This document shows positions 5,888 through 11,195 of a stretch of DNA of 64,000 nt, piece by piece. Made by a program: the position numbers and the translations under genes. The notes beneath the pieces are model-generated. The model was given only the letters and a program-made list of their open reading frames with translations. It had not been told where the DNA came from and made no database searches. The DNA lies in NCBI GenBank assembly GCA_001512545.1, contig LFSI01000083.1, forward strand, positions 6,759 to 70,758. The letters are read 5' to 3'. Source of the DNA: Clostridia bacterium DTU065 (GTDB taxonomy: Bacteria > Bacillota > DTU065). Numbering within the stretch: position 1 is the stretch's first letter; every line of letters starts with the position of its first letter.

Positions 5888-6421
5888 ATGCGTCTGTTTT
5901 TAGCTGTCAAAGTTGCACCGGATGTTTGCCGGGAGCTTTCTAGTTGGGCAGATGAGGTGAGTCTGCCCGGAAAGAGAGTGGCTCCGGAAAACCTTCATTT
6001 CACTTTAAACTTCCTGGGCGAAGGCGACCTGGACCAAGTTGCAAGCCGCCTTCACGGAGCTTTTGCTGGGATGGAACCTTTTTCTGTGAGCCTGAAAGGT
6101 CTTGGGGCCTTCTTCAGCAGGGGTGCTCCGAGGGTAATCTTTGTCAAGGTGGACAGAGGCTACAACGAGCTGATCGCTCTGGAGAAGGTCATTTCCGGGA
6201 AGCTTCCGGAGTTCAGAAAGGACAAGCCGTTTATCCCTCACCTCACTGTAAGCCGGCTCAAGGAAGGCTCCGGTGCCAAAGAAGAGGTGGAAAAGCTCAT
6301 TGAAACTTACAAAAAGCGGGATTTCGGCAGCTTTGAGGTGGATAGGGTGATTTTGTTTTCAAGCAACCTGCAGCCTGCAGGGCCGGTCTATACAGTCCAA
6401 GCCCAATGGCAGCTCGGTTGA
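5888..6421 (+). CDS. thpR: RNA 2',3'-cyclic phosphodiesterase (2H phosphoesterase, LigT/ThpR)
   Basis: 177 aa with the two HxT/S motifs of the 2H family (HFTLNFLG and HLTVSRL). Confidence 0.85.
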   Translation: MRLFLAVKVAPDVCRELSSWADEVSLPGKRVAPENLHFTLNFLGEGDLDQVASRLHGAFAGMEPFSVSLKGLGAFFSRGAPRVIFVKVDRGYNELIALEKVISGKLPEFRKDKPFIPHLTVSRLKEGSGAKEEVEKLIETYKKRDFGSFEVDRVILFSSNLQPAGPVYTVQAQWQLG

Positions 6422-6482: not shown

Positions 6483-9400
6483 ATGTCGGAAGTTGACAAG
6501 GCTAAAGAAAAGGCTTTGCAAAGTGCCATCACAGCAATAGAGAAGGATTTCGGCAAAGGCTCGATCATGCGCCTAGGCGAAAACACCGCGATGGATGTAG
6601 AGACCATTCCTACAGGTGCGCTGTCTTTGGACCTGGCACTTGGGGTTGGCGGTCTACCTAGAGGCAGAGTAGTTGAGATCTACGGTCCCGAAAGCTCGGG
6701 AAAAACCACAGTGGCACTGCATGCCATCGCCGAGGCCCAGAAGCTAGGTGGAGTTGCAGCGTTTATTGATGCCGAACACGGTACGACTTGTTGCTAGATC
6801 AAACCCAGCGGCGCTGATCAAAGTCTAGCGGGATCTTTGGTCCTAACTGCATCTTCGAAATGGCTGGGGAAGTGCCAGCCCTGTGACAAGGTTGGGTCAC
6901 ACGCTCTAATACCCCGACGTGCGGCAGTATTTCACTGTGCTGCTGTGCGAAGTTCGGAGAGGTCGGCGAAAATCAGACCTGGAAAGCGGTTAGAGAAGTA
7001 GCCGGGAGTCCATAAAGCTCCTATGACTAAGAACATGAATCCTCGTTGTAAAAGCTCGAAAGGCATCGCAGGTGCGAACAATAAGCCCTGCTCCTTCTTG
7101 TGAGGTTCAGCCTCAGCTGCGTTAAGCGTGTTTAAAGCAGTTGAATTAAACCGTCATAGGTTTTCTGTCTTTGGGCCATCCAACCGTGGGCGCAAAGACG
7201 GCTGACGGGCTAGAGAGGAAGTCTAAGGGAGCCATGCAAGGATAGAAGATGCGGTACAAGTGAACCCCGTCAGAAACTGCTAAGGAGAGTGAACTCCGAT
7301 GGTTCTAAGCAGGAGGAAATGCCTGCTGAAGATGGGGGGCAGCAGCCTGTAGTAGCGATGAAGGGCAGCCGGATGACGGTCCCGGAAACGGGATCGGAGG
7401 GAAAAACTGCCACGAGCGAAGGGGCATAGTCGAAGTAGCTTTTGGTGCTACTTCGATGGAACGCCGCATGCGGGGAAACTCGCACGTGCGGTGTGAAGTG
7501 GGGGAAAAGCGCTTCCTGCGTCCGTAAAACGAACATAGACGCGGAGTGACGCTTACCTATCACTATCATTGAATCCATCCTACGCTAAGAATCTCGGCGT
7601 GGATATCGACAACCTGCTCGTATCTCAGCCGGACACAGGAGAACAAGGTGCGACACGTTTTCGCATAACTGCTCTGTAGCAGGAAAGCGAAGGCAAAGGA
7701 TCGGCCAACTCTTAACCAGATTTGAAAGGTGAAACTCCTTTCCTTAAACCAGGTCCGGGTTTAAGTGTCTAAACCCCTACGTGCAGCGCTTCCTATCGCC
7801 AGGGAGGTTGTGCGAAGCTAGGTAAGGTCGTAATCCGAGTAGCCTAAGGCCAAACGGCTAAGGCGAAAGTGATGCGGGACTCCTTAAAAACGAATCTATG
7901 GTGACGCAGAGGAACCCTCGCCTGAAGCTCAGACAGCTTGTCCGAAAGGCAAGCTCCAGATCAAAAGCTGCGTCTTGTTTGCGGCTTTTGCTTTAACAGA
8001 TAGCTGTTACTGCCTTTAGTGAGTGCGGACCCAATTCACATAAAGGATTTGGCTGAGTAGAGAGGGCACCTAAGGATTCGTAAAACAAGGGATATGGTTA
8101 AGGGAACGTGTGAGGCCCGATAGACGGAGAAGGCGAGGTCAATGAAGTCTATCTGGGAGTCAGCCGTCTCATAGTAGTGATGAATGCCGGGAAACCAGCA
8201 GGAGCGAAGGGGACGAGTCGAAAGGGACGGTACTTATGTCTTTAGTTTACGTCGTCTCATTTAGCCCTTTCGATGGAACGCCGCATGCGGGGAAACCTGC
8301 ACGTGCGGTGTGGAGTGGGGGAAAACGCGGAGCAGAGGCAAAGCGTTACCTATCACTATCACTTGAGATTACAGAGGCTTTGGTACGAAGCGGTGCAGTG
8401 GATATTGTGGTTATCGACTCGGTTGCAGCACTGGTTCCTAGAGCAGAGATCGAAGGCGAGATGGGCGATGCCCACGTCGGCCTGCAAGCACGATTAATGT
8501 CTCAAGCTCTGAGGAAGCTAACAGGCGTAATTGGCAAGACCAAATGCTTGGTTATTTTCATCAACCAGATTCGCGAAAAAGTTGGAGTCATGTTTGGCAA
8601 CCCGGAGGTGCGCTTTGAAGCTTCTCTTTTGTAGAGGCGCCGGGAGTTTCGGTGCCGAAGGCCATGCCCACATGCGAAGCTGCATGAAGCTGGGCGGGAA
8701 TGTGGCGAAAGCTGCTAGCCTCTGATGGACACGGCTACGCGAGGAACCGCTGTTTGAGGTCCGTTGAATGCCAAAAACTTCCCGTTTTCAAGATCTACCC
8801 TCCGGTGTGATCTTGGATGCCCCAAAAGGGCAAGGGACGGACATAGGCGGAGCCTAAATCCATCGTAGAAAGAGCAAAAGAGGGGAACAAAGGAACCTTC
8901 TGCAAGAGCAGAAGGGGCGGAGTTTCCGTAGTAGCAGATAACTGCGAAGGGAAACAGACCGGTCACTCGCAAATAGTAAGGAGGAGATTAAGTGACCTTA
9001 CGAAAGCAGGAGTGGAGGAGCCTGGCAGATGCAGGCAGACTTTACGAAACCATGGCAAGCTTTGAGTTCCTACAAAAATGTGCTAAAGCTCTCAAAATAA
9101 ACGAAAAAACTGCAGCAACTCTTTCTGAGGCGCTGCAGCAAAGGACCTACCGCCCCTTAGGCGGGAACGAAGTAGACACTCTGCTTTTGAAATGTGTCTT
9201 GGACGCGCTTTCAGCGTTGATTAAAGAGGACTCGGGACTGGATCTGTACAGAACTCTAAGGACTCTGGATTTAGCTACCGTACAGATCCAGGTGGAAAAG
9301 CTAGACTTTGCCTGCCTGAAAAAAGAGCTGTTCAAGCTCTTGAAAGAGGCAGTGCCCGACGAAGAATTTGTAGACCTGGTTTGGAAAGGAGCGAAGATCG

Positions 9401-11195
9401 CCGAGGAGGATGTCCTCGAAAAACTCGCTCCGCTTCTCAAACAGAAACATAACGGCGTCCTGATCAGAGGTTGTGAGATGCTGAGTATTTCAGGTGAGAC
9501 AGCACCGGGAAATGGCCGCGATTTTGAGTTTGGGGGATATGCCGTAAAGCTAGAGCCCGACCTCAAGATCCTCCCTGCAAAATCCAGCATTGAAGCCTTT
9601 AAGAGGGATATCAAGAACCTAACAACCAGAAGCAGAGTAGGTTACAGCGTTCGTTTTAGCGCGGTAGAGATCACAAGGAGAATCAGACAGTGGCACGAGA
9701 GCTTTGGTTTTTGCACAGATCGCAAGCTTGGCAGGTATTTGGACAGCTATGTCAGAGAGAGGGTTTACCTCTTGCTTTTGAAAAAGTTTGACAAAGCTGG
9801 CAAGAAAGAAGTCTACCAGCGCTTTATGCTGGGTTATCCAACGCTTGAAGGAGTTACCATTCCTTCAACGCGTCCGGTCGGAGAGCCGTATGCGGGGAAA
9901 CCCGCACGTACGGTTCGGGGAGCGGGAGGCTGATCCCGACTCCACACAACACCAGGCGGAAGAGCACTTAAATTCGTGCGCCCGTAAAAATAGCTGTTGC
10001 GCTATTTGCGGCGTGCTGCAGAATGCTGCAGGAGCAGTCAAGAGACGCCATCCTCTTGTGGACACCAAGCTTACCTGGAAGGGAAACCGGAAGGGGACAA
10101 CAGCATGCTTGGCAAGGCAGGTATCGAGGTTATTCTTCGAGTGCATGCCCTGTCCAGAGATGTACTTTATACGGTCAAGGCTAGACTGCCTGAAACCCAG
10201 GTCGGAGGCCTAAAGTGGGGCTCACACCTTTTGGTGTGATGGAATCACGACGATGTCTTGGAATTTGACATCGGGCTAGATGGTGGGATTCCTCTCGGCT
10301 CGAAAGAGCAAAAGACCGAACGGGTGACCTAAGTAAGGTACGAAAACGTCTGTAGTGCGCTAAACGGGGATTGCCTAAGTCCGAACGCTTAAGTCGCTGG
10401 CTCAAGCTATGGTTTTAGGACCTGAATATCGGATATGGCAACGGAGTTCCCGTAGTAGTCCGAGGCGGTAGGACGGCAAACCGTCCGAACAAGGCATCAT
10501 GCCTCTAGGGAAAGCCCGCCACATGGCGAAGGGGAACAGATTGTCGCATTTCCATAGCATCGGGGTAGGTTAAGTACCTGTCGAGCTCCGAATGATCTGG
10601 AAATGTACAGCTAAAGCGCTGTGTACATCAGCACACAAGTGCTGGACTGATACCCTTTTTACTTAGCAGCTGGACTGTGCTTTAGCCTAGGTTGGACAAT
10701 CGGAGAGCCGTATACATCGAAAGGTGTACGTACGGTTCGGGGGAGGGAAGGAGCAAACCTATTGGGGCAACTCAAAAAGGCGGCTTTTTCCTATCCTACT
10801 ACTCGTCAGTACGCTTGGATATTAGAAGAATTGACTCCATTAAGTCCGGTAATGAAATCATCGGCAACCGCACGAGAGTGAAGGTTGTAAAGAACAAGGT
10901 AGCTCCACCGTTTTTGGTGGCAGAGTTTGATATCATCTACGGAACGGGTATATCTAAGGAAGGCTGCATCTTGGATGTGGCGTCCGATCTGGGAATCGTT
11001 TCCAAGAGCGGCTCGTGGTTTTCCTACGGCGATATGAGACTCGGTCAGGGCAGGGAGAATGCCAAAGAATTTTTGCGGCAGAACCAAGAATTATGCAACG
11101 AGATCGAGAGCAAAGTAAGAGAGAAGGCTTCGCTTCCAGGATACCACGCTCCAGCAGAAGATGATGATGGGGGAAAGGATTATCTAGATGAATGA
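6483..11195 (+). CDS. recA: recombinase RecA, split gene: join(6483..6780,7567..7647,8360..8607,9946..9975,10800..11195)
   Basis: The joined exons are 1053 nt, giving 350 aa plus a stop, in frame across all junctions. Walker [10 protein letters not shown]. Junction contexts are AFIDAEH|[27 protein letters not shown]|[15 protein letters not shown]...VMFGNPE|[10 protein letters not shown]|[15 protein letters not shown], colinear with bacterial RecA. recX overlaps the stop. Confidence 0.9.
6781..7566 (+). mobile_element. group II intron 1 (ORF-less, 786 nt)
   Basis: 5' gtacg. EBS1 candidate cgtgttt (7127-7133) in a hairpin loop pairs with the exon-1 end gaacacg. gtagtag (7349-7355) and gcgaagggg (7416-7424) core motifs. 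D5 acgccgcatgcggggaaactcgcacgtgcggtgt (7461-7494, CGC triad, GAAA loop, 2-nt bulge). 3' end is ttacctatcactat. Confidence 0.85.
7648..8359 (+). mobile_element. group II intron 2 (ORF-less, 712 nt), paralogue of intron 1
   Basis: 5' gtgcg. EBS1 candidate cttgttt (7974-7980) pairs with the exon-2 end gaacaag. gcgaagggg (8204-8212). D5 at 8278-8311 differs from intron 1 only by a shifted wobble pair. Identical 3' end ttacctatcactat. Confidence 0.85.
8608..9945 (+). mobile_element. group II intron 3 (1338 nt, carries degenerate IEP ORF)
   Basis: 5' gtgcg. EBS1 candidate ctccgg (8800-8805) in the loop of the agatc/gatct hairpin pairs with the exon-3 end ccggag. gtagtag (8928-8934) and gcgaaggg (8944-8951). 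D5 gagccgtatgcggggaaacccgcacgtacggttc (9883-9916, AGC triad). D6 ggag-cggga-loop-tcccg-A-ctcc with bulged A at 9939. Ends ...ac. Confidence 0.9.
8992..9933 (+). CDS. group II intron-encoded protein, degenerate RT (no YADD) with retained maturase/X domain
   Basis: GTG start with an aaggagg SD. The maturase-like block is [17 protein letters not shown]...[15 protein letters not shown]...[19 protein letters not shown] remnants are TYRPLGG and [29 protein letters not shown] sits where YADD is expected. There is no En/D domain. The C-terminus [17 protein letters not shown] is D5 read as protein. Confidence 0.75.
   Translation: MTLRKQEWRSLADAGRLYETMASFEFLQKCAKALKINEKTAATLSEALQQRTYRPLGGNEVDTLLLKCVLDALSALIKEDSGLDLYRTLRTLDLATVQIQVEKLDFACLKKELFKLLKEAVPDEEFVDLVWKGAKIAEEDVLEKLAPLLKQKHNGVLIRGCEMLSISGETAPGNGRDFEFGGYAVKLEPDLKILPAKSSIEAFKRDIKNLTTRSRVGYSVRFSAVEITRRIRQWHESFGFCTDRKLGRYLDSYVRERVYLLLLKKFDKAGKKEVYQRFMLGYPTLEGVTIPSTRPVGEPYAGKPARTVRGAGG
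9976..10799 (+). mobile_element. group II intron 4 (ORF-less, 824 nt), paralogue of intron 3
   Basis: 5' gtgcg. EBS1 candidate gaattt (10261-10266) in the loop of the cgatgtc/gacatcg hairpin pairs with the exon-4 end aaattc. gtagtag (10452-10458) and gcgaagggg (10526-10534). Short D4 remnant closed by attgtc/gacaat. D5 gagccgtatacatcgaaaggtgtacgtacggttc (10705-10738). Ends cctatcctac. Confidence 0.85.

Follow-up and report, generated by a model that had tools for sequence, protein, structure and literature searches.

Exon-binding loops in four group II introns of a recA gene from an uncultured member of the Bacillota

The recA gene studied here lies in a window of 64,000 nucleotides (nt) of contig LFSI01000083.1 (assembly GCA_001512545.1, Clostridia bacterium DTU065), and all positions are counted from the first letter of that whole stretch unless another contig is named. 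The gene is split by four group II introns, and we conclude with high confidence that four short segments, one in each intron, are functional first exon-binding sites (EBS1) of four active introns, each complementary to the end of its own upstream exon, the first intron-binding site (IBS1). The segments had been singled out in a first-pass annotation of the letters alone. The five recA exons, when joined, give an uninterrupted RecA of 350 amino acids on translation; exon 4 comprises 30 nt only (9946-9975). The gene and its parts, with open reading frame abbreviated to ORF, are as follows.

6483-11195, + strand: recA gene, five exons and four group II introns, from the frame of the joined exons and RNA contigs
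6483-6780, 7567-7647, 8360-8607, 9946-9975 and 10800-11195, + strand: recA exons 1 to 5, with RNA-contig joints at the same borders
6781-7566, + strand: intron 1, 786 nt, ORF-less, 5' end GUACG, domain V triad CGC, branch predicted at A7559
7648-8359, + strand: intron 2, 712 nt, ORF-less, domain V triad CGC, branch at A8352
8608-9945, + strand: intron 3, 1338 nt, AGC triad, ORF at 8992-9933, predicted branch A9939
9976-10799, + strand: intron 4, 824 nt, ORF-less, domain V triad AGC, branch predicted at A10793

All four EBS1-IBS1 pairings are contiguous, 6–7 pairs long and anchored at exon position −1. The segment CGUGUUU of intron 1 (7127-7133) pairs with the exon-1 end gaacacg (6774-6780), and CUUGUUU of intron 2 (7974-7980) with the exon-2 end gaacaag (7641-7647), each through six Watson-Crick pairs and one G-U pair. 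CUCCGG of intron 3 (8800-8805) faces ccggag (8602-8607) and GAAUUU of intron 4 (10261-10266) faces aaauuc (9970-9975), each through six Watson-Crick pairs. Unconstrained folding placed all four segments in hairpin loops, on stems of 7–10 base pairs (bp).

7113-7144, + strand: intron 1 EBS1 hairpin, 8-bp stem 7113-7120/7137-7144, 16-nt loop
7962-7990, + strand: intron 2 EBS1 hairpin, 10-bp stem 7962-7971/7981-7990, 9-nt loop GUCUUGUUU, aligning with the intron 1 hairpin
8787-8817, + strand: intron 3 EBS1 hairpin, 9-bp stem 8787-8795/8809-8817, 13-nt loop
10251-10273, + strand: intron 4 EBS1 hairpin, 7-bp stem 10251-10257/10267-10273, 9-nt loop UUGGAAUUU

The first-pass annotation had thus located the segments correctly, with the right partners and in hairpin loops, in four cases out of four, and its view that the stem-loops of introns 1 and 2 are homologous is borne out by their alignment and by the 5' stem strand AGCUGCGU that they have in common. 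Its broader statement, that the stem is conserved within each pair of related introns, has to be narrowed to this first pair: the stems of introns 3 and 4 are unlike in sequence (CAAGAUC/GAUCUUG versus CGAUGUC/GACAUCG) and share their shape and their position in the Id arm of domain I. Aligning introns 3 and 4 with MAFFT gave nothing usable beyond the core, so their EBS1 hairpins were equated by Id-arm position and not by sequence. The loop of intron 1 (7121-7136) can close four further base pairs, UUAA/UUAA, which genome G001, one of the related genomes described below, keeps as UGUA/UACA.

The Id arm of domain I is the expected location of EBS1. Each EBS1 hairpin falls inside an arm enclosed by the two halves of an 11-nt-type GAAA-tetraloop receptor (UAUGG or a variant / CCUAAG), which places the four loops at the EBS1 position.

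7021-7228, + strand: intron 1 Id arm, receptor halves CUAUGA (7021-7026) and CUAAGG (7223-7228)
7896-8075, + strand: intron 2 Id arm, receptor halves CUAUGG (7896-7901) and CUAAGG (8070-8075)
8730-8858, + strand: intron 3 Id arm, receptor-like halves CACGG (8730-8734) and CCUAAA (8853-8858)
10170-10333, + strand: intron 4 Id arm, receptor halves UACGG (10170-10174) and CCUAAG (10328-10333), read from the sequence with two orthologs only

The closing helices of domain I covary among homologs, and in an alignment of the Id arms of 11 introns covariation supports the base of the arm only, the distal part being too variable in length. The consensus fold of intron 3, built from six orthologs, contains 80 pairs, 15 of them changed on both sides and five of these 15 within the EBS1 stem; the loop CUCCGG and the exon end ccggag are invariant across the same six. 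In genome G001 the EBS1 stem of intron 1 reads TCAGTTA/TAACTGA, with both strands changed and the EBS1 letters the same. A two-sequence consensus fold of intron 4 domain I was dropped because its distal arm misfolded, and the placement in this intron comes from a single-sequence fold and a reading of the sequence.

Splicing of the four introns is recorded in RNA, in agreement with the earlier description of them as splicing-competent and not decayed. Contigs from RNA libraries of three independent digester/biogas metatranscriptome studies join 6780 to 7567, 7647 to 8360, 8607 to 9946 and 9974/5 to 10799/800, the last cut being ambiguous by one base, and skip exactly 786 nt (intron 1, GT..AT), 712 nt (intron 2), 1338 nt (intron 3, GT..AC) and 824 nt (intron 4). 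Circularly permuted contigs from two studies join 8351 to 7648 with a single T replacing A8352; this is the joint expected from read-through of a 2'-5' lariat branch at the predicted bulged A8352, which lies seven bases ahead of the 3' splice site. The same pattern recurs for intron 4 in one contig, which continues from 10792 into TGTGCGCC, the 5' end of intron 4 itself: one misread base (T) followed by the first seven intron bases. Run X16 yielded no joints and a contig that is unspliced across 6500-9903. Loose contig ends at 9881-9918 and 10705-10738 were rejected as cross-matches of the conserved domain V of other introns, not events at this locus, and the 9881/9918 ends in runs X15, X17 and X18 were traced to an intron in a ribonucleotide reductase gene, described below. 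Taken together, the EBS1 pairings, the RNA joints and the lariat indicate that the source bacterium makes RecA only after four ribozyme reactions.

A separate observation concerns the order of removal. A contig of 1697 nt from run X15, which spans the first base of exon 2 to the last base of exon 4, has intron 2 removed and intron 3 kept. Intron 3, which also needs to be translated, may be removed later; the contigs give no amounts.

The compared set comprised 20 recA introns at six sites in six genomes: the four described here and 16 from five uncultured Bacillota genomes of the same family. The six insertion sites lie after codons 99, 126, 169, ~199, 209 and 219, each genome has two to four recA introns, and intron content varies within the family; the site after codon 169 is empty in the source recA, and the site near codon 199 is occupied in one genome. 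Where several exon matches were listed for a relative at the phylum level, they lay within ~1 kb and thus without introns between them. The equivalent hairpin loop pairs 6–7 contiguous nt with its own exon end in every one of the 20 introns. At the intron 2 site, the exon/loop combinations gaacaag/CUUGUUU, gaacagg/CCUGUUC and gagcagg/CCUGCUC represent changes on both sides, and an exon reading gagcaag faces CUUGUUU via two G-U pairs; likewise, in an ortholog of intron 4 the exon end aaguuc is accommodated by a G-U pair. Paralogs at three sites (CGUGUUU, CUUGUUU, CCUGGAG) have the 5' strand of the EBS1 stem in common. At the intron 2 site the introns fall into two length classes, ~580 nt (three genera) and 712-776 nt (the remaining two). 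Divergence of intron 3 follows that of the exons (r 0.86, 15 non-independent pairs), and this tracking suggests that intron 3 has long been resident under selection. The intron near codon 199, in genome G002, has borders that are ambiguous by one base (gag followed by UGUGCC... or ga followed by GUGUGCC...), and its 9-nt loop UUUUCACGG pairs with the exon end under either border.

A second exon-binding site (EBS2), pairing with IBS2 just upstream of IBS1, was recognised with differing clarity in three of the introns.

8769-8775, + strand: intron 3 EBS2, UGCCAAA, seven Watson-Crick pairs with exon-3 IBS2 uuuggca at 8593-8599 (−15 to −9)
7062-7068, + strand: intron 1 EBS2 candidate, GGCAUCG, seven pairs, one of them G-U, with exon-1 IBS2 ugaugcc at 6767-6773 (−14 to −8)
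10213-10217, + strand: intron 4 EBS2 candidate, AAGUG, in a small hairpin loop, five pairs with exon-4 cacuu at 9965-9969 (−11 to −7)

Judged from the sequences, the pairing of intron 3 appears clear: the segment is single-stranded in the consensus fold, and in genome G004 both sides have changed, to exon cggca and intron UGCCG. That of intron 1 is probable, the ortholog from the same genus having AGCAU opposite exon augcu, again with both sides changed. The intron 4 pairing is tentative; the ortholog in genome G001 offers AGUGC opposite gcacu with a one-base shift, which is weak. Two routes to a third site, EBS3, which would form a single base pair with the opening letter of the 3' exon, were tried and rejected. 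The nucleotide that precedes EBS1 (EBS3 or delta-delta') paired with that letter inconsistently across introns 1–4 and the two non-recA introns of the genome. A10199, in an internal loop of intron 4, fits as EBS3 there; in the reductase-gene intron, however, that loop is opposite an A. For the introns of the intron 1/2 type, at three sites (A, B and C), every 3' exon begins with C and hence offers no covariation for EBS3.

The anatomy of the four introns points to two lineages. Domains V and VI match Rfam RF00029 at 7459-7566 (56.3 bits), 8276-8359 (57.8), 9881-9945 (69.6) and 10703-10799 (62.2), all above the threshold of 40 bits; the introns begin with GUACG or GUGCG and end with AU or AC, and the domain V loop is GAAA in all four. 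RF02004 (D1-D4-5) matches intron 1 at 6842-7016 and, more weakly, intron 2. On these two introns the Rfam D1-D4 models covered the Ic region only, with the EBS1 loop outside. Introns 1 and 2 can be aligned over their entire length, and the 5' strand of their domain V reads ACGCCG, with CGC replacing AGC. Group IIC introns have an EBS1 of ~4 bp, are without EBS2 and insert behind a terminator stem-loop; a IIC identity was rejected for introns 1 and 2, which form 7-bp pairings within a coding region, and the CGC triad alone does not imply it. Among the traits listed for class B are a CGC triad in domain V and an I(i,ii) helix with two inserted stems (PMC4024640). Introns 1 and 2 show two hairpins in the stretch that separates the 5' strand of one closing helix from that of the other, as in the class B I(i,ii) helix, and the 9-nt EBS1 loop of intron 2 carries EBS1 on its 3' side, a further class B feature (PMC4024640). 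The class itself is defined by the intron-encoded protein, and neither intron has an ORF, so that by RNA features they can only be called class B-like, ORF-less introns with a IIB-type ribozyme. Introns 3 and 4 form a second lineage, IIB-like with an AGC triad, and use EBS1 plus EBS2 in the IIB manner, the EBS2 of intron 4 being tentative.

The genomic setting of the introns was examined in the source genome, that of an uncultured Bacillota bacterium, whose assembly measures 2.2 Mb and is 93% complete. The ORF of intron 3 (8992-9933) contains only the Pfam domain GIIM (maturase-specific domain) and no reverse transcriptase domain; it is the one clear maturase domain in the genome, and a reverse transcriptase domain (PF00078) was not found in the 93%-complete assembly. 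Two further group II introns were recognised.

Contig C35:45182-46372, − strand: fifth group II intron, of the AGC type, interrupting a ribonucleotide reductase gene after ...FMPNSPTLM
Contig C6:14583-15091 (approximate), − strand: sixth group II intron, in parA/soj, no ORF, splitting the Walker A motif between GGVG and KST

The ribonucleotide reductase gene was identified by translated motifs, not by a search. Its intron has an ORF of 258 amino acids that scores 20.1 bits for Intron_maturas2, just below the cut-off, and shares no sequence relationship with the ORF of intron 3. Both introns repeat the arrangement seen in recA: a hairpin loop CAUCGG matches the exon end cugaug in the reductase gene, and a loop GCCUAC matches guaggc in parA/soj. 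All six group II introns of the genome thus lie in housekeeping genes, no further copies of either lineage were found in the genome outside these genes, and the introns look immobile. Next to recA itself, a LigT-type phosphoesterase gene lies on one side and recX on the other. The former (LigT / 2'-5' RNA ligase family, 5888-6421) is directly upstream of recA. Linkage of ligT and recA also occurs in bacteria whose recA is free of introns, and its presence beside an intron-bearing recA may be coincidence.

Several points weigh against reading the four segments as working EBS1 sites, and some of them would suit chance complementarity, with the true exon-binding sites elsewhere. When one G-U pair is allowed, a 6-mer match is expected in 63% of dinucleotide shuffles for intron 3 and 44% for intron 4, so that neither is significant singly (P 0.63 and 0.44), and intron 3 has alternative sites, one with one G-U pair (9263) and two with two. 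Since a chance match with one G-U pair is common, the match count alone is insufficient, and position and comparison decide. Apart from the named segment, no 6-mer of an intron is perfectly complementary to the end of its exon; shuffled sequences contain a perfect 6-mer at least once in 15–24% of cases per intron, a product of ~9e-4 over the four. The 9263 site falls within the ORF, in domain IV, whereas the four segments all sit in hairpin loops of Id arms, and the corresponding loops of the 16 introns from the related genomes fit their own exons, including cases where both partners have changed. Loops and exons mismatched across sites form 0–4 pairs, and the cognate total was reached by 1 of 5040 permutations over seven sites, in a test that is partly circular, two non-recA loops having been chosen by complementarity. 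We give chance almost no credence. The remaining adverse points concern structure and function. The additional four pairs of the intron 1 stem could keep the final two U of EBS1 covered before exon binding, and within the EBS1 loop of intron 3 the consensus fold has CC paired with GG, a pairing that covariation does not support. The best EBS2 in intron 2 (CCUG against cagg, four pairs) is absent in its ortholog and not convincing, and EBS3 was sought in all four introns and none was identified. The RNA evidence consists of assembled contigs, and the exon joints alone are formally compatible with an intron-free DNA allele; a branch junction cannot arise from DNA, so the lariat of intron 2 stands clear of this caveat. 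The selection of the 5' splice site by EBS1-IBS1 pairing is a role assigned from established group II intron biology.

Genuine pairings could also be mere footprints of insertion, no longer used, in introns that are in decay or leave the transcript by some other route. EBS-IBS pairing is a requirement of reverse splicing, so any intron that has retrohomed starts with a matching EBS1 and complementarity within one genome is no proof of present function; the failure to find a reverse transcriptase also fits this explanation. It is nevertheless very improbable, given the precise splicing and the lariat in RNA, the need of RecA for all four removals, the joint changes of loop and exon since the genomes diverged, and the tracking of exon divergence by intron 3. 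The history of the loops is more debatable. The first-pass annotation had called the introns retargeted, which holds in that each loop fits its own site; movement within recA followed by a change of loop is something we only infer. Related introns with ready-made specificities might instead have entered recA separately, so that the EBS1 sites would be real and no retargeting would have taken place inside the gene. Introns 3 and 4 cannot be aligned outside the core, intron content differs between genera over six sites in all, and the two length classes at the intron 2 site could mean separate arrivals. Set against this are the full-length alignment of introns 1 and 2, with their common EBS1-stem strand, and the failure to find copies of either lineage outside housekeeping genes of the genome. 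We consider separate entry unlikely, though a serious possibility; it alters the history only, and the function of the loops is the same.

On our reading of the four segments as functional EBS1 sites, splicing would proceed as follows. In the folded intron within the pre-mRNA, the EBS1 loop would pair with the last 6–7 nt of the preceding exon, and immediately upstream of this helix EBS2 would add another in intron 3; the same is probable for intron 1 and possible for intron 4. Such exon pairings would hold the 5' splice site at the catalytic centre of domain V, where the bulged A of domain VI would attack and free the 5' exon; EBS1-IBS1 pairing would keep that exon in place until its ligation to the next one, and the intron would leave as a lariat, branching having been seen for intron 2. 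The maturase-only protein of intron 3 is predicted to help the AGC-type introns fold.

The pairing mechanism is textbook; what is unusual is the setting, with introns lacking a reverse transcriptase fixed in bacterial housekeeping genes. A group II intron in the recA gene of Geobacillus kaustophilus was reportedly described by Chee and Takami in 2005, a single one judging by the title, compared with four here. In Trichodesmium, a cyanobacterium, Meng et al. are said to have found in 2005 that introns are spliced with the help of one intron-encoded protein, a likeness in that several similar introns occupy different bacterial genes and one protein acts on others. In canonical IIA and IIB introns, the 5' exon is recognised by EBS1-IBS1 and EBS2-IBS2 (Jacquier and Michel 1987, summarised in PMC4024640 and PMC4424553). 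The recA introns resemble them in the ~6-bp pairing of a domain I loop with the exon directly before a GUGYG start, in the second pairing upstream, in an exon held through both steps and in the lariat; they differ in that pairings are 6–7 bp long, intron 1 starts with GUACG and one intron is without a recognisable EBS2, none of which is a difference in principle. The Thermosynechococcus elongatus families (Mohr et al. 2010, PMC2882425) likewise comprise close copies with diverged EBS at matching sites, mostly ORF-less and there dependent on a protein encoded elsewhere. Those copies are mobile, served by active reverse transcriptases, and mostly intergenic or in mobile elements (PMC2882425), whereas the present genome yielded no reverse transcriptase and has its six introns, without exception, in housekeeping genes. 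The nearest described relative of introns 1 and 2 is C.te.I1 of Clostridium tetani, also of the Bacillota (McNeil and Zimmerly 2014, PMC4024640), which has the CGC triad, two extra stems in its I(i,ii) helix, EBS1 on the 3' side of its loop and no ORF, and has lost EBS2, seemingly as in intron 2. It differs in its shifted 5' splice site, the lack of a branch A and hydrolytic splicing (PMC4024640), while the splice site of introns 1 and 2 adjoins their GUGYG start and a lariat arises from intron 2.

The confirmed pairing proves these introns to be functional; through it the splice sites are fixed and joint selection on loop and exon becomes visible. ORF-less introns, degenerate intron proteins and introns in housekeeping genes are described in reviews as rare in bacteria (PMC4424553). 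A wider interpretation, for which we see about even chances, is that the family holds its group II introns in an organelle-like state: without reverse transcriptase, in essential genes (recA, the ribonucleotide reductase gene and parA/soj) and in vertical descent, with EBS1 loops that no longer serve mobility and now track synonymous codon changes in the host gene, and with one or two maturase-only proteins as shared splicing factors. If that is true, the EBS1/IBS1 co-changes at the intron 2 site would be a record of intron-host coevolution in a free-living bacterium. A lineage that combines several rare traits with natural exon and loop variants at one site is a ready system for the question of how mobile introns settle in host genes and come to share splicing factors.

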